Positions 135 to 17,276 of a stretch of DNA of 64,000 nt are shown here, in pieces. Position numbers and translations under genes: made by a program. Within the stretch, counting starts at the first letter, position 1. Each line of letters begins with the position of its first letter. Source of the DNA: Desulfomonilia bacterium. GTDB taxonomy: Bacteria > Desulfobacterota > Desulfomonilia > UBA1062. The stretch lies in assembly GCA_963664325.2 (NCBI GenBank), contig CAXXDQ010000003.1:256001-320000 (forward strand), in the 5' to 3' direction. A model generated the notes under the pieces. It made no database searches. It had not been told where the DNA came from and worked only from the letters and a program-made list of their open reading frames with translations.

Positions 135-1844
135 ATGGCTACCGAAAGAATTGGCGAAAAATTAATTAAAAACGCGCTTATCACACCCGAACAGTTGCTG
201 GAAGCACAAAAAGCCCAAAGGGTCAGCGGTGTGAGGCTTGGCTCTCAACTTGTAAAGCTCGGCTATATTTCCGAGGAAGAACTGGTTCAATTTTTAGGTC
301 AGCAGTACGGACTGCCCTCTATTGTCTTGAAGAATGTCAAGACGGATCACGAAGCGATAAAACTCGTCCCGCAAAACATCGTATTGAAATATAATGCCAT
401 CCCGTTTGAAAGATCTGGTTCAACACTAAAGGTGGCAATGACCGATCCATCGAATATATTTGCTGTTGACGACATTAAATTTCTCACAGGGTATTCAATC
501 GAAGTGTATGTAACATCTGAGGAATCCCTGAGATGGGCGATTGACAACCTCTATGGCAAAAACGAAGAGGAAGCGATTGAAGATACTCTGTCTGGTCTTG
601 AAGGGTTTGAAGATGGAATTGAAATTGATGAAGGGTTCGACGATGTTACGGCCGGAGCACTGGCCCATGAGGCTGAAGAAGCCCCGATAATAAAGCTTGT
701 AAATCTTATTCTTATTGACGCGATTAAAAAGGGGGCTAGTGATATTCATATCGAGCCCTATGAAAAGTTCGTCCGGGTAAGATTCAGGCTTGACGGCATG
801 CTGCAGGAAATAATGAAACCGCCCATGCGTTTTAAAAATGCTATTACATCAAGGCTCAAAATTATGAGCAAGCTTGACATAGCAGAAAGAAGGCTTCCGC
901 AAGACGGAAGGATAAAGCTGAGGGTTCAGGGCGGCAAAGAGGTTGAATTCCGTGTTTCAGTATTACCGACACTGTTCGGGGAAAAGGTTGTTTTGCGTAT
1001 TCTGGATAAGGCGACTCTGCAGCTTGACATGACAAAACTCGGATTTGAGGAAGAGGCGCTGAAGTATTTCAAGGAAGGCATTTACAAACCATGGGGTATG
1101 GTTCTGGTTACAGGCCCCACAGGCTCCGGCAAGACAACGACTTTATATTCGGCTATTTCCGAGTTGAACAGGATAGATACCAATATATCAACCGCCGAGG
1201 ATCCGGTCGAGTTTGATCTGCCGGGCATCAACCAGGTACAGATGCACGAGGAAATAGGACTGACGTTTGCTTCCGCATTAAGGTCTTTTCTAAGGCAGGA
1301 CCCTGATATAATTCTTGTCGGGGAGATCAGGGACTTTGAAACGGCAGAAATAGGCATCAAAGCTGCCCTTACAGGCCATCTTGTCCTGTCAACACTTCAC
1401 ACGAACGATGCCCCGGCAACAATCAACAGGCTTCTTAATATGGGAATCGAGCCTTTCCTTGTAGCATCTTCGGTCAACCTCATAGTTGCCCAGAGGCTTG
1501 CAAGAAAGAATTGCAAGGAGTGCATTACAGACGACGATGTCCCGTCGGGGACTCTTGTCCAGATGGGAATGGACCCTGAAATTGCGAAAAAAGTTGTAGC
1601 CAAAAAGGGGAGCGGCTGTCCTGCATGCAATAATTCGGGGTACAAAGGCAGAGTTGCCCTTTACGAGGTTATGACGGTAGGAGAATCTCTCAAGGAATTG
1701 ATCCTGATGGGTGCATCGGCATCCGAGATAAAGAGAGAGGCGATAAATCAGGGGATGAAGACATTAAGGCAAAGCGGTCTGACTAAAATAGCCGAAGGTG
1801 TAACATCCGTGTCCGAAGTTCTCAGGACAACTATGCCGGATTGA
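135..1844 (+). CDS. pilB: Type IV pilus assembly ATPase PilB
   Basis: N-terminal MshEN-like repeats (RIGEKLI...RLGSQLVKLGYIS), Walker A GPTGSGKTT, LRQDPDIILVGEIRD, tetracysteine Zn motif (CKEC...CPAC). ATG at 135 follows GAGGAG; the ORF track starts at 108. Confidence 0.97.
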   Translation: MATERIGEKLIKNALITPEQLLEAQKAQRVSGVRLGSQLVKLGYISEEELVQFLGQQYGLPSIVLKNVKTDHEAIKLVPQNIVLKYNAIPFERSGSTLKVAMTDPSNIFAVDDIKFLTGYSIEVYVTSEESLRWAIDNLYGKNEEEAIEDTLSGLEGFEDGIEIDEGFDDVTAGALAHEAEEAPIIKLVNLILIDAIKKGASDIHIEPYEKFVRVRFRLDGMLQEIMKPPMRFKNAITSRLKIMSKLDIAERRLPQDGRIKLRVQGGKEVEFRVSVLPTLFGEKVVLRILDKATLQLDMTKLGFEEEALKYFKEGIYKPWGMVLVTGPTGSGKTTTLYSAISELNRIDTNISTAEDPVEFDLPGINQVQMHEEIGLTFASALRSFLRQDPDIILVGEIRDFETAEIGIKAALTGHLVLSTLHTNDAPATINRLLNMGIEPFLVASSVNLIVAQRLARKNCKECITDDDVPSGTLVQMGMDPEIAKKVVAKKGSGCPACNNSGYKGRVALYEVMTVGESLKELILMGASASEIKREAINQGMKTLRQSGLTKIAEGVTSVSEVLRTTMPD

Positions 1845-1855
1845 TTGGAGGTATT

Positions 1856-2959
1856 GTGGAGAGCACAATTTATGACCTGTTGAAAAAAATGGTGGAAAAG
1901 GGCGCATCCGATCTTCACGTCACTACTGGATCTCCACCGCAGATAAGGGTGAGGGGAGATTTGTTCCCTCTGGACGAGCCGGCTCTTACACCGCCTGACA
2001 CCAGGCAGTTGCTATATTCCCTGCTGACCGAGGCGCAAAAGCATAAATTCGAAGAAGATCTGGAACTCGATTTTTCATTCGGCCTGAAGGGGCTGGCACG
2101 CTTCAGGGGCAATGTTTTTATTCAAAGAGGCGCACCTGCTGGTGTTTTCAGGATGATCCCCTACGAAATCATGTCTCTGGAAACACTCGGATTGCCGAGT
2201 GTTACCGGAAAGCTTACCAGCTATCCCAGGGGGATGGTCCTTGTAACGGGTCCTACCGGAAGCGGAAAATCAACAACGCTTGCGGCATTTCTCGACAAGA
2301 TAAACCAGGAACGCAAGGCTCATGTTATAACGATAGAAGATCCTATAGAATTTGTTCACAAACATAAGAATTGTCTGGTCAACCAGAGGGAAATTGGAAG
2401 CGATACAAGGAACTTTGGAAATGCACTGAAGCACATTCTCAGACAGGATCCGGATGTCGTATTCATAGGTGAAATGAGAGACCTGGAAACAATGCAGGCG
2501 GCGCTTACGATCTCTGAAACAGGACACCTGGTTTTTGCAACGCTGCATACGAATTCATCAGTTCAGACTATTAACAGGATTGTAGATGCCTTTCCCTCAC
2601 ACCAGCAGCCCCAGGTACGGGCTCAGCTGGCATTCGTTCTCGAAGCGGTTATTGCCCAGCAGCTTCTGCCAAGAGCCGACGGTTTGGGCAGAGTCCTGAC
2701 ATGTGAAGTAATGATAGCTACACCTGCAATAAGAAATCTTATCAGGGAAGACAAGATTCACCAGATATATTCTCAGATGCAGGTAGGACAATCAAAGCAC
2801 AACATGCAAACCATGAACCAGTCTTTATATAACCTATATCTTAAGAAACTGATAACCCTTGAGGATGCCCTGGGGTGGGCGGTGGATGTTGATGAACTCA
2901 AACAGATGATGTCTTCAACAGGTGGGATAAAGATAAATTCTGGAGGAGAGAGGAGATAG
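1856..2959 (+). CDS. pilT: Type IV pilus retraction ATPase PilT
   Basis: GASDLH, GPTGSGKSTT, TIEDPIE, LRQDPD and the PilT AIRNLIRE motif. GTG at 1856 follows GGAGG. Confidence 0.97.
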   Translation: MESTIYDLLKKMVEKGASDLHVTTGSPPQIRVRGDLFPLDEPALTPPDTRQLLYSLLTEAQKHKFEEDLELDFSFGLKGLARFRGNVFIQRGAPAGVFRMIPYEIMSLETLGLPSVTGKLTSYPRGMVLVTGPTGSGKSTTLAAFLDKINQERKAHVITIEDPIEFVHKHKNCLVNQREIGSDTRNFGNALKHILRQDPDVVFIGEMRDLETMQAALTISETGHLVFATLHTNSSVQTINRIVDAFPSHQQPQVRAQLAFVLEAVIAQQLLPRADGLGRVLTCEVMIATPAIRNLIREDKIHQIYSQMQVGQSKHNMQTMNQSLYNLYLKKLITLEDALGWAVDVDELKQMMSSTGGIKINSGGERR

Positions 2960-2962
2960 CCT

Positions 2963-4159
2963 ATGCCAATATTCGTTTGGGAGGGCAAACTTGCTGACGG
3001 GACTGTAAAAAAGGGTGAGGTTGATGCCGGAAGCAAGGCGGCAGTAAACACCATCCTCAGAAGGCAGAAGATAACTCCAACAACAATAAAATCTAAATCA
3101 AGACAGATCGCACTGTTCAAGAAAAAAGTTAAGACGAAAGAACTTGTTGTTTTTGTCAGACAGTTTGCAACCATGATAAATGCGGGACTCCCTCTTGTTC
3201 AATGTCTTGAAATACTGGGAGGCCAGCAGGACAACTCCGAATTTAAAAGGATTATTACGATAATCAGACAGGATGTGGAGGGAGGCTCGACATTTGCCGA
3301 TGCTCTCAAAAAACATCCGCAAATATTTGATGAGCTTTTTGTCAACCTGGTAGCGGCAGGTGAACTTGGCGGAGTCCTTGATGTAATTCTTAACAGGCTC
3401 GCTTTGCATATGGAGAAGGCTGAAGCGATCAAAGGCAAAGTTAAAAGTGCAATGGTATACCCGATAATCGTTGTTTGTGTGGCCGTTGCTGTCGTCTCAG
3501 TACTTATGATATTTGTCATTCCGACATTTAAAGAGATGTTTACCTCGTTCGGAGGAACCCTGCCGGCCCCGACCCAGATTGTTATAGGCATGAGCAATTT
3601 CTTCAGGGGGTACTGGTGGGTCTTGATAATTATTATTGTGGTAATTGTTGTCGCCTATAAAAACGCAATGAAGATGCCTAAGATCCGATATCAGAAGGAT
3701 AAGATAATGCTCAAACTGCCTTTATTCGGGCCTCTTCTCCGAAAGGTCGCGGTTGCAAAATTCTCCAGGACGCTTTCAACCATGATATCTTCTGGTGTGC
3801 CGATTATGGATGGCCTTGAAATAACATCAAAGTCTTCTGGAAACATGGTGATTGAAGAAGGCATTAAAAATGTCAGACAGTCGATAAGCGAAGGAAAACC
3901 GATGGCCGAACCGCTTGAGGCAACTGGACTCTTTCCCGGCATGGTTGTTCAGATGGTTTCCGTTGGCGAGGCAACCGGAGCTCTTGATAATATGCTTTCC
4001 AAAATTGCGGATTTTTATGATGAAGAAGTCGATGCCGCGGTTTCGGCCCTTACTTCTTCACTGGAACCTTTGCTCATGGTGTTTCTCGGCGGTACAATCG
4101 GATTCCTGGTAGTGGCGATGTACCTGCCTATCTTCAAAATGGGTGCGGTTGTCGGTTAG
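2963..4159 (+). CDS. pilC: Type IV pilus inner-membrane platform protein PilC (T2SS F family)
   Basis: FVRQFATMINAGLPL, AGELGGVLD, GEATGALD, AMYLPIF; pilB-pilT-pilC synteny. Confidence 0.96.
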   Translation: MPIFVWEGKLADGTVKKGEVDAGSKAAVNTILRRQKITPTTIKSKSRQIALFKKKVKTKELVVFVRQFATMINAGLPLVQCLEILGGQQDNSEFKRIITIIRQDVEGGSTFADALKKHPQIFDELFVNLVAAGELGGVLDVILNRLALHMEKAEAIKGKVKSAMVYPIIVVCVAVAVVSVLMIFVIPTFKEMFTSFGGTLPAPTQIVIGMSNFFRGYWWVLIIIIVVIVVAYKNAMKMPKIRYQKDKIMLKLPLFGPLLRKVAVAKFSRTLSTMISSGVPIMDGLEITSKSSGNMVIEEGIKNVRQSISEGKPMAEPLEATGLFPGMVVQMVSVGEATGALDNMLSKIADFYDEEVDAAVSALTSSLEPLLMVFLGGTIGFLVVAMYLPIFKMGAVVG

Positions 4160-4165
4160 TCCCAG

Positions 4166-4432
4166 ATGAGTATTTTTGAGGCCATGATGCTGATATGTTT
4201 CGGGGCGGCATGGCCTTCATCTATTTATAAATCCTATACATCACGGACATCCCGGGGGAAAAGTCTTGCATTCCTGATCATTGTCCTTGTCGGCTATGCA
4301 GCAGGAATCATGCATAAGGTTTTTTACAGTTTCGATCCGGTTATTTATCTTTATATAATCAACGCACTTATGGTTCTGGCGGACATTTTTCTTTACTTCA
4401 GAAACATCAGATTTGATCACAGCCCGGTATAA
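4166..4432 (+). CDS. Small membrane protein, PQ-loop/SemiSWEET-like (3 TM)
   Basis: 88 aa with three hydrophobic segments; FEAxMLICFGxAWPxSIYKS...GKSLxF pattern typical of PQ-loop-like proteins. Confidence 0.7.
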   Translation: MSIFEAMMLICFGAAWPSSIYKSYTSRTSRGKSLAFLIIVLVGYAAGIMHKVFYSFDPVIYLYIINALMVLADIFLYFRNIRFDHSPV

Positions 4433-5130
4433 CCGGAGAAAAAAAGTTCCTCATTAACAAGCGTTTTTCTGCTTCCTTTTATTTCAACTACCAGAAAGCC
4501 ATTGGAGTCTATGTCTTTGATATCGATTTCAGTTCCGTCGGACAGCATGGGCTTGAAGTCGGATTTTATATGATGTCTGAGGAAGCATTCTTTTATCGGA
4601 TCGAATCCGTCTTTTATTAGTATATGATACCACTTCCCGATTGAATCAATGATAAGGCCTGAGACATCAATGATATTATAATGGTTGCCGGAAACAAGTT
4701 TAAGGGACACTGCTTTAGAAACAAGATCATCGGGCCATTCAGTCTGATTAATGTTAACCCCGATGCCGACGGCCGTGATGGGAGGTCTTGATTCGCAGAG
4801 GATTCCTGCAATCTTTCTGCCTTTGACAAGGATGTCGTTAGGCCATTTAATAAGAGATGCTTCACCGGGAAGGATCCCGGATATAGCCTCCCGTGCAGCC
4901 ACACCTGCCATCACCGTATATCTTGTATCTATACCCGGCAATGTAATGCTAAGAAAAAGGTTGCCCTCAGGCGAAAACCACTGGTGTCCCCTCCGGCCTC
5001 TTCCGGCGCTTTGCCTTTCTGCTGAGACTGCTACAAATGGTTTTCCGTGATCAAGGGCATACCTGTTGGTCGAATCTACAGTCTCAAGGTTGATAAGCTC
5101 TGTTGCGAAGCCTTTTTTATCAGCCTTCAA
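4417..5130 (-). CDS. birA: Biotin--[acetyl-CoA-carboxylase] ligase (no N-terminal HTH)
   Basis: VDSTN, AERQSAGRGRRGHQWFSP, IKWPNDI, KIAGILCE, GIGVNIN motifs. Confidence 0.93.
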   Translation of the reverse strand: MKADKKGFATELINLETVDSTNRYALDHGKPFVAVSAERQSAGRGRRGHQWFSPEGNLFLSITLPGIDTRYTVMAGVAAREAISGILPGEASLIKWPNDILVKGRKIAGILCESRPPITAVGIGVNINQTEWPDDLVSKAVSLKLVSGNHYNIIDVSGLIIDSIGKWYHILIKDGFDPIKECFLRHHIKSDFKPMLSDGTEIDIKDIDSNGFLVVEIKGSRKTLVNEELFFSGYTGL

Positions 5131-7770
5131 GGAGTTTTCTGGCCCTCTCTATTTTTTCAAGCTTGAAGCTTAACTCTTCCTTCAGCCTTTTCTGCTCCTC
5201 AACGACCTCCGGGTCGGCCTTCTCCATGAAATTTCTGTTTGAAAGTTTCTTGTTTTTTGCATCCAGGTCTGAGCTTACGTTTTTGAGCTGCTTGTTCAGC
5301 CGGTCCATCTCCTTGCTGATGTCTATGACGCCTTCAAGCGGTATGTATATTTCCATGTCGGCCGTTACTGCAAAGGCGCTCTCTTTTCGGGGCATCCTCT
5401 TCTACAAAGGAAAGCCCCTTGACCCTCGCAAGCCTTTTGACAAGATTTATATGGCCTTCAAGTATTGTCCTTACATCGGGCGATTTCGGTTTGAGTATTG
5501 CATCGAGCTCAATGGACGGTGATATGTTAGATTCGCCCCTTATGCTCCTTATCCCTGAAATCAGCTCGATAATAACATCCATGAAACGGGCCTCATCCAT
5601 GAAACTGAAACGTTCGTCAACAGAAGGGAAATTCGTAATGGTTATAGACTCTGGTTTTTTCCCGGGGTATGAGCTGCCAGACCTCTTCCGTTACAAAAGG
5701 TATGATCGGGTGCAGCATTTCCAGGATCGTCCTGAATACATGAACCAAAACCCATTTAGTCGTATCCGCTGTCTCGCTTTCAAGCATGGGTTTTGAAAGT
5801 TCGATGTACCAGTCGCAGAATGTGTGCCATGTAAAGTGATAAAGGATTTCCGCCACATCGTTGAACCTGTATTCATCGAGCGCCGAACGAGTGTCTGAGC
5901 AATCGTCTTGTTGAGTTCCGTCAGCACCCATTTATCCGAAGTCGAGAGCTTGAGACCCATTGCTTCAACCGACTCTGGATTGAAGTCATCGCCGATATTA
6001 TTCAGTACAAAGCGGCCTGCATTCCATATCTTGTTTATGAAAAAGCGGTAGCCCTGTATGCGCTTCTCGCTCATGCGGACATCCCGGCCCATTGCAGCAA
6101 AAGCGGCCAGGGTAAACCTGAGTGCATCCGCGCCGAAACGGTCCATCTCGGACAATGGGATCGACGAAATTCCCCTTGGTCTTGCTCATCTTCTGCCCGT
6201 GCTCGTCGCGGATCAGGCGCGTGCAGGTAAACCGTATGGAAACGGCACATCTCCCCGGTGAACTCCATGCCCATCCATGATCATGCGCGCCACCCAGAAG
6301 AACAGGATGTCAAACCCGGTCACGAGGACACTGCCCGGATAGAATATCTTGAGTTCGGGTGTCTCATCCGGCCAGCCCATTGTTGAAAAAGGCCAGAGAG
6401 CGTGCGGATGAAAACCACGTATCAAGCACGTCGGTTTCCTGCCGCAGGTTGGCGGAAGAACATTTTTGTGCATTTATCCGGGTCAGTCGTGCTTACGATG
6501 ACCTCACCGCAGTCGTCGCAGAACCAGGCGGGAATTCTGTGTCCCCACCATATCTGCCTTGAGATGCACCATTCACGGATGTTGTTCATCCATTCGTAAT
6601 ATGTCTTTTCCCATTGCTGGGGGATTATGCGCGTCGCGCCTGTTTTCACAGCCTCGGTTGCCTTTTCCGGCCAGGGGCTTTGTCCTGACGAACCACTGCT
6701 TCGAGAGGTACGGTTCGATAACGGTCCTTGCAGCGGTAGCATTTTCCCACGGGGACTTTGTATGGCGTCTTGCCAACTAAATAGCCTTGCTCTTCCAGGT
6801 CTTTTTCAAGCTGTTTTCCTGCATTCGAAACGGTCCATCCCCTTGTATGGTCCTGTATTTGATGACATAAAGCCTGATTCGTCGATTATCACGATAATCT
6901 CAAGGTTATGCCTTATTCCCATTTCATAGTCGTTCAGGTCATGAGCAGGTGTTACCTTGACCGCGCCTGTGCCGAATTCCAGGTCAACAACAGGGTCAGG
7001 TATGATTTCTATCGGCCTGTTGATTATGGGCAGGATGGCATTTTTCCCCACAAATGATTTATAGCGGCTGTCCTCGGGGTTTACGGCAATGGCCGTGTCC
7101 CCAAGCATGGTCTCGGGCCTTGTCGTGGCGACCACCACTTCGCCGCCATTTTCCATGGGGTAGCGTATATGCCACAGAAAGCTGTCCTCTTCCTCGTGAT
7201 CGACTTCGAGGTCGGAAATCGCGCTGTGACATCTCGGACACCAGTTCACGATGTAATCGCTCCTGTAGATCAGGTCTTCATTATACAGGCTTACAAAAAC
7301 TTTTCTGACCGCCCTGGAAAGGCCTTCGTCCATGGTGAACCTTATTCTGTCCCAGTCCGCATGACGCCCCCAGGCGTTTGAGCTGGTTTATGATCAGGCT
7401 GCCGTGCTTTTCCCTCCATTTCCAGACCTCTTCGATAAAGGCCATCCCTTCCCAGTTCGTGGACGGGAAGTCCCTTTTTCGGCCAGGTGCCTTTCAACGA
7501 CAGTCTGAGTTGCGATTCCTGCATGGTCGGTCCCGGGCATCCAGAGGGTGTTGTAGCCGTCCATGCGTTTATAAACGGCAGAGTATGTCCTGAAGAGTAG
7601 TATTGAGGGCGTGTCCCATATGAAGGACGCCGGTTATATTGGGAGGCGGGATGACTATGCAGAAGGCCTGTTTTTTTATTATCAGAGGGTGCATGGAAAA
7701 ATTTTTTGGTAAGCCAGAATCCATACCATTTCTGTTCAATATCGGCCGGGGTGTATTCCTGGTCAAGCAT
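5120..7770 (-). pseudogene. valS: Valine--tRNA ligase, broken by many frameshifts in this sequence (probably sequencing/assembly error)
   Basis: Collinear fragments in different frames: [15 protein letters not shown] (HIGH), [84 protein letters not shown], and the C-terminal coiled coil LSNRNFMEKADPEVV. Confidence 0.95.
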
Positions 7771-11741: not shown

Positions 11742-14249
11742 ATGAATAAAATTATCCTTACCGGCCTTATAGTTATCCTGTGTTGCAGTGATGCCTTCGC
11801 ACTGAAATCAATGGAAAAAGACGGTGTTTATTTGTACTATCCAGAGGAAGAAGAGGCCTTGGCTGCATCCCTGATGACAAAGCTTGACCCGATAATGGAT
11901 TTTCTTAAGTCATACAGCCTTAGCGTCCCAAAACCACTGCATGTGATAATCGATGAAAAAAAAGATTATCCCGGAGTGGACGTACATGTGATCCCCCATT
12001 ACGAGATCCGCATTCCGATCAAGGCCCCAGGCGTACTGGATGAAGGGTATATGGAAGAAGACCCCTGGGGTTATTTCCTGTTTAAGGGGATGTGCCTTCA
12101 GTCGATATATACAATCAGGTCGGGTTTGCCGGATGCGTTGCATTATGTGTTTGGCGAAGTAATGTCGCCGAACGGTATTATGGCCCCATGGTTCGACGAG
12201 GGTTTTTCAAGCCTCATGTACAAGCTGTATTGCGGCAGGCCGGTTCAGGATCCATATGACAAGGCGATATTCATGGCATCGCTGAAGCCTGATATCGCCA
12301 AACTGAGCAATCATCCCGGGATATGGCCCGGCCATTATGCCTACAGGATTTTCGGGAGGCCCTTTATCGAATGGGTATATGGCAAGTACGGGATGAACAG
12401 GCTGATGGATTTCATAAGGGTACATGGAAATGGTATTATTCCTCTTGAGATTGATCTGAAGGCGAGGGAGGTCTTTGGCAAAACCTGGCATGAGATGTGG
12501 GAAGATTTTATGGGAGAATCCGCCAGGGATTCCGATGATGCGGCAGGCATATTTATCCAGGGATACTGGCCTGAACCTTTTATCTACTGGAATAATTCGG
12601 GTGTGTACCCCGGTGTGGAAAGAAATTCCGTATGCGGCAGGTACGGATACAGAAATACAAGAGGAACAGTATGGCTTCAGGAATATGACTGGGAGGAAAA
12701 ATCACGCATCGTTGCATATATGGACGGGATTTCCAGGATTACCGAGGTCAAGCATGTATGGGATGCGGGACCGGGTGACGTTGCGGTTACCAGAAAAGGC
12801 CATGTCCCGTATCTCATTGATCTTAAATCGAAGGATATCCTCGGCATAGAGACGTTGATCAGAAGCTCCGAGTTCATACCTGGACCCCCGGGGGCTATAC
12901 AGATGTCAGGTCCGGTCAGGGATGCCAGGGGAAGGATTGCCGTTTCCGCCAATGTAAAAGGGAACTGGGATATATGGGTCTATGATAAAAGCTGGACCCG
13001 AATGACGGATTCGCCTTCGACAGAGATGGACCCATGGTGGGATGGCGAGACGCTTGTATATGCCTCCGATTCGTCAGGCAAATTCCAGATATATACGCCG
13101 GGAACGGTTCAGCTGACTGACACCCCGCATGGTGCCGTCATGCCCAGGGGGGGCAAGTATCTGAGCCTGATGCATAACGGTTGGAGGATGGAGAGTTACA
13201 AAATCAGCGAGGAGACCGGCAACAAAATACTTTCTCTTCAACCGACAAGCCCGGAAAGCATATCTCCGGATGCCGATAAAGGAAATAAATACAATCCTTT
13301 TAACAGCCTGTTTCCCAACTGGATGATACCGGATTTCTATGCCGATTTATCCGACGTGCAGATCGGCCTGGTTACGTACAGCAGGGATGTCTCGACAGAC
13401 TATACGTTAAACGGCGGGTTCAGGTATTCATTCTACGAGAACTATCTTAGCGCAAGGCTTGGCGGAAGCGCAAAAGGCCTCGATATAAACCTGTCAAGAT
13501 ACCCTCTTGATTATTCCTCTGATATTGCTGACGTCGACGAATCAAGGCTTGAGGGCAAGCTTGCATACCGTCCTTTCAACAACAGATGGTTTGAACTCTC
13601 ATGTAACTGGCTGGGCTGGGAAGAGCGTGAATTTGACGATGTCAATGGTGAAGACATCTGGGGGGCTGTCAGCATTAATAAGATTTTCGGAAGCCTTGGA
13701 ACATCCCTGACCTATGAACACTATTCCGGTGGCATGAACTCCGCCTATGCGAGCTTCAGGCTGAAAGAAGGGAAAGAGATATTCAGTGTGTTCAGCCTGA
13801 GTGCGGCAAGAACATGGGGTGATTATGAACCGGGACACGGTTCTTTCAGAATGGGAGGGGATGTAGGAGAAGGATATTTTACCAGAAGACCGTCAAGACT
13901 TTATCCTTTAAGGGGGTTTCCATCCAACACTTTTGAGGCCGGTCAAGCGTATACAGCAGGGGCCGAGGTCTATTGGCCGATCGCTAACATTCAGAAGGGC
14001 TACAAGACAATACCACTTTTCCTGCACAGGCTCAAACTGGGAACATTTGTGGACAGCGGCATATGTTCTGATGAGGTATCTACGGATGACATTGCTTTAG
14101 GGGCTGGTATTGAACTGGTCACATCCATGGAAGTTGCTTGGGGGGTAATGACGGAATTCAGGTTCGGGATAGCCTTGCCGGTTGTCAAACCTGATTATAT
14201 AGACAGTGCTGGGTATGTGATCTTATTACAGATAGGCCGGCCTCTTTAA
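11742..14249 (+). CDS. Secreted/outer-membrane protein: degenerate gluzincin-like N-domain, TolB/PD40-like repeats, Omp85-like C-terminal barrel
   Basis: Signal peptide; PWFDEG motif; GNWDIWVY...EMDPWWDG...YASDSSGKFQIY repeats; C-terminal PLRGF, FVDSG, GAGIEL and RFGIA beta-strand patterns. Confidence 0.65.
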   Translation: MNKIILTGLIVILCCSDAFALKSMEKDGVYLYYPEEEEALAASLMTKLDPIMDFLKSYSLSVPKPLHVIIDEKKDYPGVDVHVIPHYEIRIPIKAPGVLDEGYMEEDPWGYFLFKGMCLQSIYTIRSGLPDALHYVFGEVMSPNGIMAPWFDEGFSSLMYKLYCGRPVQDPYDKAIFMASLKPDIAKLSNHPGIWPGHYAYRIFGRPFIEWVYGKYGMNRLMDFIRVHGNGIIPLEIDLKAREVFGKTWHEMWEDFMGESARDSDDAAGIFIQGYWPEPFIYWNNSGVYPGVERNSVCGRYGYRNTRGTVWLQEYDWEEKSRIVAYMDGISRITEVKHVWDAGPGDVAVTRKGHVPYLIDLKSKDILGIETLIRSSEFIPGPPGAIQMSGPVRDARGRIAVSANVKGNWDIWVYDKSWTRMTDSPSTEMDPWWDGETLVYASDSSGKFQIYTPGTVQLTDTPHGAVMPRGGKYLSLMHNGWRMESYKISEETGNKILSLQPTSPESISPDADKGNKYNPFNSLFPNWMIPDFYADLSDVQIGLVTYSRDVSTDYTLNGGFRYSFYENYLSARLGGSAKGLDINLSRYPLDYSSDIADVDESRLEGKLAYRPFNNRWFELSCNWLGWEEREFDDVNGEDIWGAVSINKIFGSLGTSLTYEHYSGGMNSAYASFRLKEGKEIFSVFSLSAARTWGDYEPGHGSFRMGGDVGEGYFTRRPSRLYPLRGFPSNTFEAGQAYTAGAEVYWPIANIQKGYKTIPLFLHRLKLGTFVDSGICSDEVSTDDIALGAGIELVTSMEVAWGVMTEFRFGIALPVVKPDYIDSAGYVILLQIGRPL

Positions 14250-14457: not shown

Positions 14458-14700
14458 TCAGACTTCAATCTCTTTAAGGATTTCTTTTAGCCCTTTTTTA
14501 ATCTGTTTTGTATCTTCCTTTTTTTGAAGAAACTGTCTTTCCAGATCATCATGCCTTTTTGTTAGCTTACCCAGTTCCTGCCTGATGGATGCCAGTTCAT
14601 CATTCAGTTTTTTAATTTCGCCGTTAAGATCGACTTCGCTTGATATATCATCAACGAGTGAGAACAGATCGGTTACCTTCTGTTTTGTCTTAGAGTCCAT
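14458..14700 (-). CDS. Small coiled-coil protein, last gene of the Pom-like operon
   Basis: 80 aa with heptad pattern (IKKLNDELASIRQELGKLTKRHDDLERQF); RBS GGGAGG; overlaps the end of the upstream gene. Confidence 0.7.
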   Translation of the reverse strand: MDSKTKQKVTDLFSLVDDISSEVDLNGEIKKLNDELASIRQELGKLTKRHDDLERQFLQKKEDTKQIKKGLKEILKEIEV

Positions 14701-15505
14701 AGGCCTCCCGCTTTGCCTTTAGCCTTATCTGTGCCAGGGACGCATGCACCTGTTCCAGAGTTGATTTAAGTTCAACAATCTCATCTTCAAGCGGCATGCG
14801 TTTATTGTTTTCTTCTTCCAGAAGGGATTCAAGCTTCTTGATCCTCTGATATGAGGCTTTGAGGTCTCTTTCAAGAATGGAGGCCTTGACGTCGAGCAGG
14901 GCCTTGTCTTTGACCTCGCTTTCAATCTTTGCTAACCTTTCCTCCAGATCCTGCTTAAGAGATATCTGTTCGTTTAAAGCCTTATCTTTTTCGCTGATAA
15001 TCGTAAGCAGCCCCTGTATGTAAAGGTTGGCATCCTGAAGCTGTTCATTAAGGAAATCGATCTCCCTGTTCAGATGACTGGCTGATGTTGCAGCGCTTTG
15101 AAGGGCGGACAACTGCTGGTTCAGTTCAAGATTTTCCTTGAGAGCGTCTTCAAGGGCATGGTCTTTAAGACCTAGCAAACGATTTGCCTCCTTCTTTTCT
15201 ATAATCATGCTGGTAAACTGGGAATCGATTTCTTTTAATGTCTTTTCCGTATGTTTTATTCCTGCAGGAATCATCTTGTCAGGGCGCTGTAGCTGTGTTT
15301 CAAGTTTAATTTCCACAGGTTCATTTTCATAGGTATAACTTTCTGTTTCCTGCTGCTCGAAGTTTTGAATTTCAATTGTTGCAGGTTCCATTTCTTCAGT
15401 TCTTGAGGTTAATTGAACAGGGTTAATGTTCCATGGTCTGTTTGGTCTGACTTTCTGGATTTTCGGCATTTTTTCCGCAACATTTTTATCAAAGCCGTCT
15501 TTCAT
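14690..15505 (-). CDS. pomX: PomX-like protein: N-terminal ParA-activating peptide plus long C-terminal coiled coil
   Basis: N-terminus MKDGFDKNVAEKMPKIQK aligns without gaps to the M. xanthus PomX N-peptide as I recall it (MKKAFEQNVSRAKPRLR); acidic linker, then about 170 aa of coiled coil; directly downstream of the PomZ-like ATPase. Confidence 0.65.
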   Translation of the reverse strand: MKDGFDKNVAEKMPKIQKVRPNRPWNINPVQLTSRTEEMEPATIEIQNFEQQETESYTYENEPVEIKLETQLQRPDKMIPAGIKHTEKTLKEIDSQFTSMIIEKKEANRLLGLKDHALEDALKENLELNQQLSALQSAATSASHLNREIDFLNEQLQDANLYIQGLLTIISEKDKALNEQISLKQDLEERLAKIESEVKDKALLDVKASILERDLKASYQRIKKLESLLEEENNKRMPLEDEIVELKSTLEQVHASLAQIRLKAKREAYGL

Positions 15506-15579
15506 TACACGCTCCCTTTTATTAAGATTATATCGCTTAAGCTTAATATTTTACATTCAGTCATTATAATACCAGGTTC

Positions 15580-16539
15580 TTAAAAAACAATCGGCAGTTC
15601 AGGAAAAATTTCCTTAATCATGGAGTCGATATCGGATGCGCCCCTGCCCTTGGAAGTATATAAATGTATTGGAAGCCCCATACTGGCTGCCTCTGCCATT
15701 TTTGTATCCTGCCTGACAATGGTGCCGAGAAGGTAATCGCTGTAATGCTCTTTCAGGGCTTCTTTTGCCCGCTGGCAAATATTTAAGGCCGCATTATAGT
15801 GATTTATGATTATATGGATGCTGTCTAATATAAAATCAAAATCTTCTTCTATTCCGGAAAGTGTTTCAAAGAGAATCTTGAGGCCGTGATAGGAAAGAAA
15901 ATCTGCCAGGACGGGTACAAACAGGTCTGTGCTTGCAAGAATGCCGTTAAGGTTTAACAGGCCGATTGAAGGAGACGCATCCATTACGATAACGTCATAC
16001 TGATCCTGAACTGTGGCAAGACTCTTTTTAAGCCTCAATTCCCGTGCATTCATCGATGTCAGTGCAAGTTCAACAGGAGACAGGTCGAGGGTTGCCGGAA
16101 TAAGCTTGAGATTGGACATAGGGGTATCGATTATTACATCTTTTATATCCATGCGTTCGATCAGTACATTATAGAGAGTCGCCTCAAAATGATCTGAAGA
16201 TATGCCAAGACATTGCGTAAGATGACCTTGCGGGTCGAGGTCTATCAGAAGGACTTTCATACCGAGATGTGCAAGCCTGAATGCATAAAAGGCAGACAAT
16301 GTTGTTTTACCCGTGCCTCCCTTGAAGTTCAGAAAAATCTGCCGCTTTTTCATTTTCAACAATGGGCCTTTGCCAAGCCTGTCAAGATAAAGAGGTATGT
16401 CATGCGGCCAGTAATAACGTATACCGTCAATTAGTGTTGGCTCCGGGAACATGCCCTCGGATTCCATTTTTTTATGCTGCGACTTTGATATTCCTATTAG
16501 TCTGGCAAAATCCTTTGCTGTGTATTTGGGCTGATTCAT
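15580..16539 (-). CDS. pomZ: ParA/MinD-family ATPase with N-terminal HTH, PomZ-like
   Basis: RQIFLNFKGGTGKT deviant Walker A, LIDLDPQG, DLFVPVLADFLSYHGLKILFET (near-identical to the PomZ segment as recalled), MerR-like N-terminus YTAKDFARLIGIS. ATG at 16539 overlaps the upstream stop (TAATG). Confidence 0.85.
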   Translation of the reverse strand: MNQPKYTAKDFARLIGISKSQHKKMESEGMFPEPTLIDGIRYYWPHDIPLYLDRLGKGPLLKMKKRQIFLNFKGGTGKTTLSAFYAFRLAHLGMKVLLIDLDPQGHLTQCLGISSDHFEATLYNVLIERMDIKDVIIDTPMSNLKLIPATLDLSPVELALTSMNARELRLKKSLATVQDQYDVIVMDASPSIGLLNLNGILASTDLFVPVLADFLSYHGLKILFETLSGIEEDFDFILDSIHIIINHYNAALNICQRAKEALKEHYSDYLLGTIVRQDTKMAEAASMGLPIHLYTSKGRGASDIDSMIKEIFPELPIVF

Positions 16540-17189
16540 TATATATCCTTGATAATTTTCCACCAGCCCTGCCACTTGGCTACTATCCAGGAAAGTTCAT
16601 CATCGGTTGCGCCGGATGGATTGCCGAAGTCTTCGCCGGTTATCTTTTTCAGCGTGCAGATAGCCTGTATTTTTACTTCGGCATCTTTATCCTTAAGTGC
16701 GTCGATAATATTTCCGGCATCATTTTTTCTTCCCCATACGCTGGTAAGTTTAAGTGCGTCTTTTCTAACTTTCGAGTCTTCGTCCTTGACAGCGATGTGC
16801 ATTATTGAACTCAGACTTGATCTGTCATTCATCCATGAGAGGTAGCTGATTACCCTTCTTCTTACATAGGGGTCATGATCATTCAGCCAGGCTATTCCTT
16901 CGCTAGGTTTGAACGAACCGTTTCTGAACAGGTATCTTATTGACTGGCAACGAATATTCGGGTCCTTTTCTTTGGTGCCTTTGTAAAACACCTTTGTAAA
17001 ATCGCCCGGTGTATCGAAAAGGATGTCATAGATTATTGTTGCAGTATCTCTATCGACTGATTCCAAGGCCTCAAGTATCATATTTTGCGATGTTTTTCCA
17101 TGCTGTGCCAGGGCTTTTACAGCAAGCCTTTTTATCTCAGGGTTGCTGTCCTTTAGATCCTGTAGGATATCATTCATATTTAATTTCAA
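16539..17189 (-). CDS. HEAT-repeat protein in the pomY position
   Basis: Repeated LKDSNPEIKRLAVKAL / LNDHDPYVRRRVISYL / KDEDSKVRKDALK / LKDKDAEVKIQAICTL. TTG start 8 nt after AGGAGG; the ORF track starts at 17237. Confidence 0.8.
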   Translation of the reverse strand: MKLNMNDILQDLKDSNPEIKRLAVKALAQHGKTSQNMILEALESVDRDTATIIYDILFDTPGDFTKVFYKGTKEKDPNIRCQSIRYLFRNGSFKPSEGIAWLNDHDPYVRRRVISYLSWMNDRSSLSSIMHIAVKDEDSKVRKDALKLTSVWGRKNDAGNIIDALKDKDAEVKIQAICTLKKITGEDFGNPSGATDDELSWIVAKWQGWWKIIKDI

Positions 17190-17276
17190 GAAATTTTCCT
17201 CCTGCCTGAACATTGTAAGTATAAATGGGAAAAACAAAGGTAGTCAAGCCATTCATTGTAATGATATTTGTATAAT

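Follow-up and report, generated by a model that had tools for sequence, protein, structure and literature searches.

Positions 14458 to 17189 of a 64,000-nucleotide stretch of genome from a Desulfomonilia bacterium (GenBank assembly GCA_963664325.2, contig CAXXDQ010000003.1, positions 256,001 to 320,000; hereafter the window) carry four co-oriented genes on the minus strand. They encode a HEAT-repeat protein, a ParA/MinD-type ATPase with an N-terminal helix-turn-helix (HTH), a long coiled-coil protein and a small coiled-coil protein. The window lies at C3:256001-320000 of a 4.3-Mb assembly that is 95.6% complete, and its host, to judge from its lineage, is an anaerobe. Among positive regulators of Z-ring placement, PomXYZ of Myxococcus xanthus is the one studied best; it is also, to our knowledge, the only ParA/MinD system with two activators, and we know of no Min system in M. 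xanthus. Judged from the sequences, the cluster described here is very probably orthologous to that Pom system. The homology of its ATPase and HEAT domain to PomZ and PomY, an N-terminal peptide common to its long coiled-coil protein and PomX, the architecture of the proteins, the gene order and the conservation of the locus are the observations on which we build. The main features, with lengths in amino acids (aa), are as follows.

16539..17189, minus strand: gene 1, PomY-like HEAT-repeat protein, 216 aa
15580..16539, minus strand: gene 2, PomZ-type ParA/MinD ATPase, 319 aa
14690..15505, minus strand: gene 3, putative PomX-like scaffold protein with coiled coil, 271 aa
15458..15505, minus strand: N-terminal 16 residues of gene 3, presumed ATPase-activating peptide (PomX-NPEP-like)
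14458..14700, minus strand: gene 4, small coiled-coil protein, 80 aa

This layout bears out a first-pass annotation of the stretch, which had described four genes in this order, overlaps between genes 1 and 2 and between genes 3 and 4, and an operon with no parB. Read from the sequence, the stop codon of the HEAT gene and the start codon of the ATPase gene overlap by 1 nt in TAATG, genes 3 and 4 have 11 nt in common (ATGGACTCTAA), and a gap of 74 nt separates the ATPase gene from gene 3. Gene 1 starts with TTG at 17189, preceded by AGGAGG 8 nt upstream, with an alternative ATG at 17177. Pfam recognizes HEAT_2 in gene 1 (E 2.9e-16) and AAA_31/CbiA in gene 2 (E 8e-47), finds zero families above its cut-off in genes 3 and 4, and detects no ParB or ribbon-helix-helix (RHH) domain in any of the four. 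A canonical Soj-ParB pair is encoded on another contig of the same genome.

The ATPase and PomZ

The Pom locus of M. xanthus AM003 (L046) has the order pomY-pomZ-pomX that the first-pass annotation had given for it, with a pomY open reading frame (ORF) at 863-3037, pomZ at 3078-4037 (319 aa) and pomX at 4043-5257 (404 aa), and this order matches that of the HEAT, ATPase and gene 3 reading frames of the window. The two ATPases are of the same length. In BLASTP they are 47% identical over 315 aa (295 bits, E 4e-104), and the alignment takes in the N-terminal segment as well as both motifs that had been cited as a likeness to PomZ beyond generic Soj motifs; both turn out to be common to M. xanthus PomZ. 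Searched against the M. xanthus genome, the window ATPase finds PomZ at 292.9 bits and the next ParA at 135.8 bits, and the reverse search in the window's genome returns the window ATPase at 292.7 bits and Soj at 129 bits, so that the two proteins are reciprocal best hits. Against the ORFs of 108 loci, it scores 466-583 bits with proteins from the family of the window's genome (f1), 336-367 bits with those of families f13 and f9, mostly 280-297 bits with full-length myxobacterial PomZ, and at most 175 bits with everything else.

Phylogenetic analysis gave a concordant picture. In an IQ-TREE phylogeny (LG+C20, 59 rows, 328 columns), in which long outgroup branches were flagged, 16 myxobacterial PomZ and 28 Desulfobacterota proteins form one clade with support of 94/89, and each side is a group of its own (PomZ 92/95, Desulfobacterota 100/98). 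The Soj-type proteins of both genomes are placed away from this clade, and the window ATPase did not cluster with generic ParA, the outcome that had been named beforehand as decisive against a Pom identity. HTH-ParA proteins of the sister family f2 are the next sister to the Pom clade (99/94). Rows omitted from the tree were duplicates (L104, L098), truncated or broken sequences (L029, L047, L075, L084, L090, L067, L032), one locus with a score below 50 bits (L102), and all myxobacterial loci but 16. On the phylogeny proposed in the first-pass annotation, the grouping with PomZ and the separation from Soj stood, in a tree without MipZ, McdA, ParC, PpfA and true MinD. On its sequence, the window ATPase is a PomZ orthologue.

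Residues of known function point in the same direction. An alignment of 32 Desulfobacterota and Myxococcota sequences has 80 invariant columns, among them G74, K78, D102 and K280 of the window ATPase, which align with G62, K66, D90 and K268 of PomZ; K268 is the DNA-binding residue of PomZ. The window ATPase has therefore kept the deviant Walker A motif (KGGTGKT, with K73 and K78), the catalytic aspartate and the DNA-binding lysine. Among 25 residues of PomZ to which a 2025 preprint (bioRxiv 10.1101/2025.12.01.691545) assigns a function or a contact with a partner, 16 are identical at a fixed offset of +12, and other offsets yield 0-4. Of the 13 positions in the PomX-peptide pocket, 6 are identical and five more are conservatively changed, as against 2-4 of 13 identical in four Soj-type controls; the pocket for helix alpha-5 of PomY is identical at 6 of 8 positions, as against 1-2 of 8 in the same controls. 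The two ATPases also have in common a long motif around DLFVPVLADFLS.HGLK.LFET.

The AlphaFold model of the ATPase (mean predicted local distance difference test (pLDDT) 84, predicted template-modelling score 0.87) places a winged HTH at residues 1-54 (pLDDT 89-94) before the ParA fold, in agreement with the earlier description of an HTH-ParA. Myxobacterial PomZ has a corresponding N-terminal HTH-like segment, which is 13 residues shorter. A complex prediction for the dimer with two ATP and residues 1-40 of gene 3, run without controls, scored 0.02 and 0.14 against a mark of 0.32, and we weigh it neither for nor against the proposed contact. Among the best solved relatives are 8ray_B, labelled "ParA family protein" (E 1.9e-37), and Soj (6iub, E 1.8e-30). 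Close homologues in public databases belong to records labelled "Desulfomonilia bacterium", "Thermodesulfobacteriota bacterium" or "Deltaproteobacteria bacterium", and are annotated merely as "ParA family protein", "AAA family ATPase" or "chromosome partitioning protein".

Other members of the superfamily resemble the window ATPase less closely. The Soj/ParA-ParB-parS systems have an ATPase of the same superfamily, but the window's cluster has no ParB or parS partner (centromeres were not searched for), and its ATPase is 32% identical to the genome's own Soj, compared with 47% to PomZ. McdA/McdB, ParC/ParP, PpfA/TlpT and MipZ likewise feature an orphan ParA-type ATPase beside a cargo-specific adaptor with an expected activating N-terminus; however, similarity is much lower for McdA (E 1.4e-13 in a search of the Protein Data Bank) and MipZ (Pfam E 1.2e-5), and the window locus has no link to carboxysomes, chemoreceptors or ParB. 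Activation by a basic peptide at the partner's N-terminus is presented as a general rule for ParA systems in an mBio paper.

The HEAT protein, gene 3 and gene 4

The HEAT protein is related to a single part of PomY. A profile of the HEAT family (23 Desulfobacterota sequences) aligns with one of the PomY family (16 sequences) at 97.8% and E 1.1e-12 in hhalign, from window residues 10-198 to PomY residues 212-403, a span that comprises the whole HEAT domain and a short segment after it; no alignment extends past PomY residue 403. M. xanthus PomY also picks up HEAT proteins directly by BLASTP, seven from f13 and one from f1 (E 3e-9 to 4e-6). When the PomY HEAT profile was run with unfiltered hmmsearch, the window HEAT ORF came top of 15,498 (35.6 bits, E 5.8e-9), the next reaching 15.4 bits; default profile searches with the full-length and the HEAT-only PomY profiles returned nothing in the window's genome. 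At 216 aa, compared with 682 aa for PomY, the window protein consists of HEAT domain from its start and ends about 20 residues after it with a tryptophan-rich helix, and it has no long disordered region. By sequence, the HEAT protein corresponds to the HEAT domain of PomY and to that domain only. The HEAT domain of PomY binds PomX in pull-downs, according to one study (PMC10307791), and by itself neither binds nor activates PomZ, according to another (10.1101/2025.12.01.691545).

The tryptophan-rich C-terminal helix (16539-16600), with the pattern E-W-I-x-A-K/R-W-Q-G-W-W (W..KWQGWW), is strongly conserved in f1 and f9 and occurs neither in the f13 HEAT homologues nor in PomY. It may serve in docking or in membrane binding.

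Gene 3 begins with a sequence that aligns without gaps, from Met1, with the 22-residue activating peptide of PomX printed in the eLife 2021 paper (PMC7993993). M1, K2, F5, N8, V9 and P14 are identical, and D6/E6, A10/S10, K15/R15 and I16/L16 are conservative replacements (gene 3/PomX). We scanned all six-frame positions of the window's genome, without gaps and with BLOSUM62, for the 16 or 18 residues with which M. xanthus PomX (from L046) begins, and the N-terminus of gene 3 came out first among 8.6 million positions. One match in the genome, at this site, was obtained with a regular expression fitted to the two peptide forms and written with knowledge of both sequences. Moreover, PomX peptides from divergent Myxococcota bridge the two forms and keep the core F-D-x-N-[VIL] ... 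K-P. Gapless alignment, first rank and bridging forms together uphold the earlier statement that gene 3 starts with a PomX-like peptide. These divergent loci number 12, with PomZ 53-65% identical to that of M. xanthus, and M. xanthus BLASTP queries detected PomX in only 8 of them and PomY in only 9; since the partners escape detection at some loci even within Myxococcota, weak partner similarity is to be expected at phylum distance.

A peptide-bearing coiled-coil gene follows the ATPase gene at 16 of 17 f1 loci, all ten f13 loci and the single f9 and f5 loci, compared with none of nine loci with other ParA types. The AlphaFold model of gene 3 (pLDDT 79.5) has a short helix at residues 6-11, a disordered linker at 26-79 and a single helix of 187 residues at 82-268 with pLDDT above 90. 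Sequence and model suggest that gene 3 follows the plan of PomX, with an N-terminal peptide, a disordered linker and a long helix. Common to both sequences are a basic N-terminal peptide whose core reads F-[DE]-x-N-V...P-[KR], a disordered linker and, at the C-terminus, some 190 residues of coiled coil that end in a similar L-E-x-V-H-x-x-L-x-Q; on the other hand, gene 3 is 271 aa long compared with 404 aa for PomX, and has no Ala/Pro-rich region.

Gene 4, an extra 80-aa coiled-coil gene relative to PomXYZ, has a conserved N-terminus followed by a heptad-rich helix in the alignment. BLASTP finds its relatives at 15 of 17 f1 loci and at no other locus examined, and its neighbours in the Atlas all score below 0.9. 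We considered that it might be a split-off coiled coil of PomY, an idea that the sequence does not support: gene 4 has no similarity to the PomY family in hhalign (1.4%). By eye, in the alignment and the PomY sequence, the hydrophobic residues of its N-terminal helix are spaced as in PomY alpha-5 (V-x-x-L-L-x-x-M). From this spacing and the conserved alpha-5 pocket of the ATPase, one may speculate that gene 4 is a second partner of the ATPase.

Distribution, neighbourhood and division genes

The cluster is a stable trait of its family. A full-length ATPase orthologue with 69-89% identity occurs in each of the 24 other f1 genomes, which represent 14 genera, and hence in 25 of 25 with the window's own. 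The four genes stand in unchanged order at all 11 f1 loci inspected by eye. Across 17 f1 loci, the window's included, BLASTP found the HEAT protein at 17, gene 3 at 16 and gene 4 at 15, all misses falling at contig ends. The four-gene arrangement is not due to chance. Outside the family, an even sample of 401 genomes from the phylum contains ATPase orthologues at 55-58% identity in f13 (10 of 11 genomes), f9 (1 of 1) and f5 (1 of 1, truncated), three families outside the window's class, and nowhere else in the sample. At these loci, the upstream gene encodes a HEAT protein 23-27% identical to that of the window (E 3e-12 to 6e-6), and the downstream gene encodes a coiled-coil protein that bears the N-terminal motif. 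Gene order is kept in the f1, f13 and f9 loci; a lack of conserved order in relatives had been another outcome named beforehand as decisive against a Pom identity.

In the f13 clusters (L018-L027; for example L020:272-3471), an RHH_3 protein of 79-98 aa (Pfam, 56 bits) comes first, then a HEAT protein (about 250 aa) and the ATPase, followed by a protein of 110 aa and a coiled-coil protein of 271 aa. The last two each carry F-x-x-N/S-V-A-x-K-x-P at the N-terminus, and by sequence f13 may possess two activators of the peptide type. The presence of the RHH protein hints at anchoring to a specific DNA sequence or at autoregulation.

In f2, an HTH-ParA that is 33-35% identical over its full length occurs in 5 of 16 genomes (G025, G027, G031, G035 and G039; loci L030 and L033), and the match in G025 contains one in-frame TAG. 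Like the window ATPase, it has the N-terminal HTH extension, but it has no HEAT gene or peptide-bearing coiled-coil gene beside it and is followed by a protein of 125-136 aa without a Pfam family.

On the myxobacterial side, true Pom loci were retrieved from a collection of species genomes with a degenerate DNA pattern for the first nine residues of the PomX peptide. This search yielded 59 loci, all in Myxococcaceae/Archangiaceae-type records or unclassified metagenome-assembled genomes titled "delta proteobacterium" or "Proteobacteria", bar one Comamonas-titled record. The latter (L051; BNCN01000008.1, "Comamonas sp. KCTC 72670") holds a complete pomY-pomZ-pomX whose PomX and PomY are 82% and 93% identical to those of M. 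xanthus, and has the look of a myxobacterial assembly that is mislabelled or contaminated. Of 201 genomes sampled evenly from the phylum of M. xanthus, 89 (one of which, G624, is flagged unpublished) have a PomZ-type protein at E <=1e-55, with identities from 100% down to 53%. The window ATPase, at 47-49%, falls just beyond this range.

As for the surroundings, priA adjoins the cluster upstream and is divergent from it, and downstream lies a gene for an 835-aa protein (11742-14249, plus strand), convergent to the cluster, with a signal-peptide-like N-terminus. The C-terminus of this protein (…LLQIGRPL) also appears beside the cluster in several f1 loci, meaning that the neighbourhood is conserved. 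One candidate regulatory element precedes the HEAT gene:

17218..17247, minus strand: weak sigma-70-like promoter match just upstream of the HEAT gene, TTGACT-18-TATACT, 10/12 matches

A scan for promoters and terminators gave 9 matches in the region against a shuffled mean of 7.5, which is no excess.

The genome encodes FtsZ (399 bits), on contig C5. It has no MinD above the cut-off of 212.9 bits, the best score being 129.8 bits and that of the window ATPase on the same model 31 bits, and neither MinE nor MinC was found in this 95.6% complete assembly. MinD is absent from all 41 genomes of the class. It is present in 30 of the 401 genomes sampled from the phylum, none of which belongs to f1, f13, f9 or f5.

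Proposed function and competing explanations

We favour the reading that the cluster is orthologous to the PomY-PomZ-PomX system of Myxococcus, in a divergent and reduced form that a Desulfomonilia-type family has conserved vertically, and that it probably works by the same positioning mechanism as its homologues. In M. xanthus, a positively charged peptide at the extreme N-terminus of PomX suffices to activate the ATPase, the C-terminal coiled coil of PomX polymerizes into the scaffold, and the Pom cluster travels over the nucleoid to midcell, where it stimulates formation of the Z-ring. All binding, ATPase activation, nucleoid movement and the link to FtsZ we infer by homology with M. xanthus. 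The ATPase would bind ATP, dimerize and coat the nucleoid non-specifically. Gene 3 would polymerize through its 187-residue helix into a scaffold or cargo that displays many copies of the N-terminal peptide, and this basic peptide would dock at the ATPase dimer interface and trigger ATP hydrolysis. The HEAT protein, and probably gene 4, would load onto the gene 3 scaffold. The flux of ATPase would then move the assembly towards mid-nucleoid, where it would most likely mark the site of, or stimulate, FtsZ-ring assembly. A role at the division site, considered separately from orthology, seems somewhat more likely than not.

Several observations weigh against this reading, and most of them concern the partners. 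The PomY-like protein is without the N-terminal coiled coil of PomY, which PMC10307791 describes as required in M. xanthus for condensates and for colocalization with constrictions, and without PomY residues 496-682 (helix alpha-5 along with the gD domain), which bind PomZ and carry the activating activity (10.1101/2025.12.01.691545). K13, one of two residues essential in PomX, is Met in gene 3, with K12 and K15 flanking it. The margin of the peptide scan is small (38 vs 36), and gene 3 is not at the top when 22 residues are used. Its coiled coil compares with that of PomX at 43% and E 2.5e-4 in hhalign, the two proteins align at E 0.04 in BLASTP, and a PomX hidden Markov model misses gene 3, its top match in the genome being gene 4 with an E of 0.3, which is not significant. 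Among the HEAT matches in M. xanthus, PomY leads by no more than a narrow margin (55 vs 49.9 bits). Finally, the lack of Min proteins is uninformative: 371 of the 401 sampled phylum genomes are without MinD, and the sister family f2 has neither Min nor the Pom-type system. The earlier suggestion to check whether the genome lacks minCDE therefore gave a result, none being found, that is not specific to this lineage, and we dropped Min absence as functional support.

The term "streamlined" in the first-pass annotation, which had proposed a streamlined Pom-type system, has to be qualified in the same light. The relatedness to the Pom system holds at the level of sequence, but "streamlined" understates the difference, since the condensate-forming and activating parts of PomY are missing altogether. 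Without them, either the system has one activator and no condensate, or these roles have moved to gene 4 or to the C-terminus of the HEAT protein.

The most serious competitor is that a Pom-homologous machine positions some other cargo, or only itself, and does not recruit FtsZ, which we regard as unlikely though deserving of attention. It would account well for a HEAT protein stripped of the PomY coiled coil, disordered region and gD domain, for a lineage-specific gene 4 that has no Pom counterpart, for neighbours (priA and the 835-aa protein gene) that are not division genes, and for partners that vary by lineage, as with the RHH protein and the two peptide-bearing proteins of f13. Yet the system to which the cluster is orthologous has division-site positioning as its sole known role, the cluster is strongly conserved throughout the family, no candidate cargo gene is linked to it in the loci examined, and MinC, MinD and MinE were not found in a genome that has FtsZ.

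It is improbable that the ATPase alone is a true relative of PomZ, with unrelated partners recruited to it, and that genes 1 and 3 resemble PomY and PomX through convergence or in generic features, common as HEAT repeats and coiled coils are. The coiled-coil similarity is indeed weak, and the Desulfobacterota HEAT profile matches 14 HEAT stretches in M. xanthus, among which pomY, the best at 55 bits, is ahead by 5 bits. However, the reverse HEAT search leaves a clear gap (35.6 vs 15.4 bits), and the HEAT match is collinear from end to end, including the segment after the repeats. Gene order is identical; the peptide lies precisely at the N-terminus of the gene that follows the ATPase, at the first-ranked of 8.6 million positions, and has intermediate forms in divergent Myxococcota; and the ATPase pockets that contact PomX and PomY show more conservation than those of Soj.

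An ordinary type Ia DNA-partition ParA, of a chromosome, plasmid or integrated element, with genes 3 and 4 as an unusual centromere-binding adaptor, is a very improbable and largely refuted explanation: the best NCBIfam model for the ATPase is the plasmid-partition RepA, the N-terminal winged HTH resembles that of type Ia ParAs, the f13 RHH protein has the fold of ParG-type centromere binders and the GC content of the cluster region (0.416-0.418) is below that of its flanks, but the RepA score of 118 bits is far below the cut-off of 348, the cluster has no ParB or ParG (no centromere search was made), a separate Soj-ParB pair is encoded in the genome, the ATPase groups within the PomZ clade and not with Soj-like or other ParAs, and the locus is conserved with its neighbours across 14 f1 genera, contrary to a mobile element.

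Taken as a Pom orthologue, the cluster extends the known range of the system. The claim that Pom had been characterized only in myxobacteria agrees with full-text searches of the literature, which returned Pom papers on Myxococcus only and did not extend to supplementary tables, where an earlier mention of non-myxobacterial homologues is possible. Co-occurrence of PomX, PomY and PomZ is placed in Cystobacterineae (eLife 2021, PMC7993993), the Pom system is called conserved in myxobacteria (2025/2026 PomZ paper, 10.1101/2025.12.01.691545), and a 2024 review lists PomXYZ for M. xanthus only. On sequence grounds, the Pom machinery is not confined to myxobacteria and has a reduced four-gene relative in a new phylum. 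Its conservation as an orthologous cluster among uncultured Desulfobacterota broadens that range and marks the evolutionarily stable core, namely the ATPase, the N-terminal peptide (F-D-x-N-V...P-K), the HEAT domain and the scaffold with its coiled coil. For reconstitution, the cluster is a far smaller natural version, one that tests whether the PomY condensate and the second activator are essential or lineage-specific additions. For part of a phylum so widely lacking MinD, it is also a first candidate for a system that acts at the division site.

The reciprocal groups formed by the two phyla in the ATPase tree fit ancient common descent and one old transfer alike. We tentatively suggest, as a view that may well prove wrong, that the Pom machine predates the split between Myxococcota and Desulfobacterota or was anciently exchanged between them, and that the ancestral core was small. 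It would have consisted of a winged-HTH PomZ, a PomX-like filament former with a single activating peptide and a bare HEAT adaptor; the PomY coiled coil and the second activator would be later additions, whose jobs are dispensable in the present lineage or done in trans by gene 4. If true, the cluster would represent a minimal Pom system that occurs in nature, and a general solution available to some anaerobes without Min.

Two observations concern related genes at other loci. One Myxococcota genome has a second PomZ-type gene, 53% identical, at G625:C42:29454-30227. The window's genome contains two near-identical ParA-type copies (G000:C2:6265-7011 and G000:C4:343261-344001; L107 and L106), with end branches of 0.00 and 0.065 in the tree and open frames of 381 and 348 aa, which may belong to a repeated mobile or plasmid-like element.

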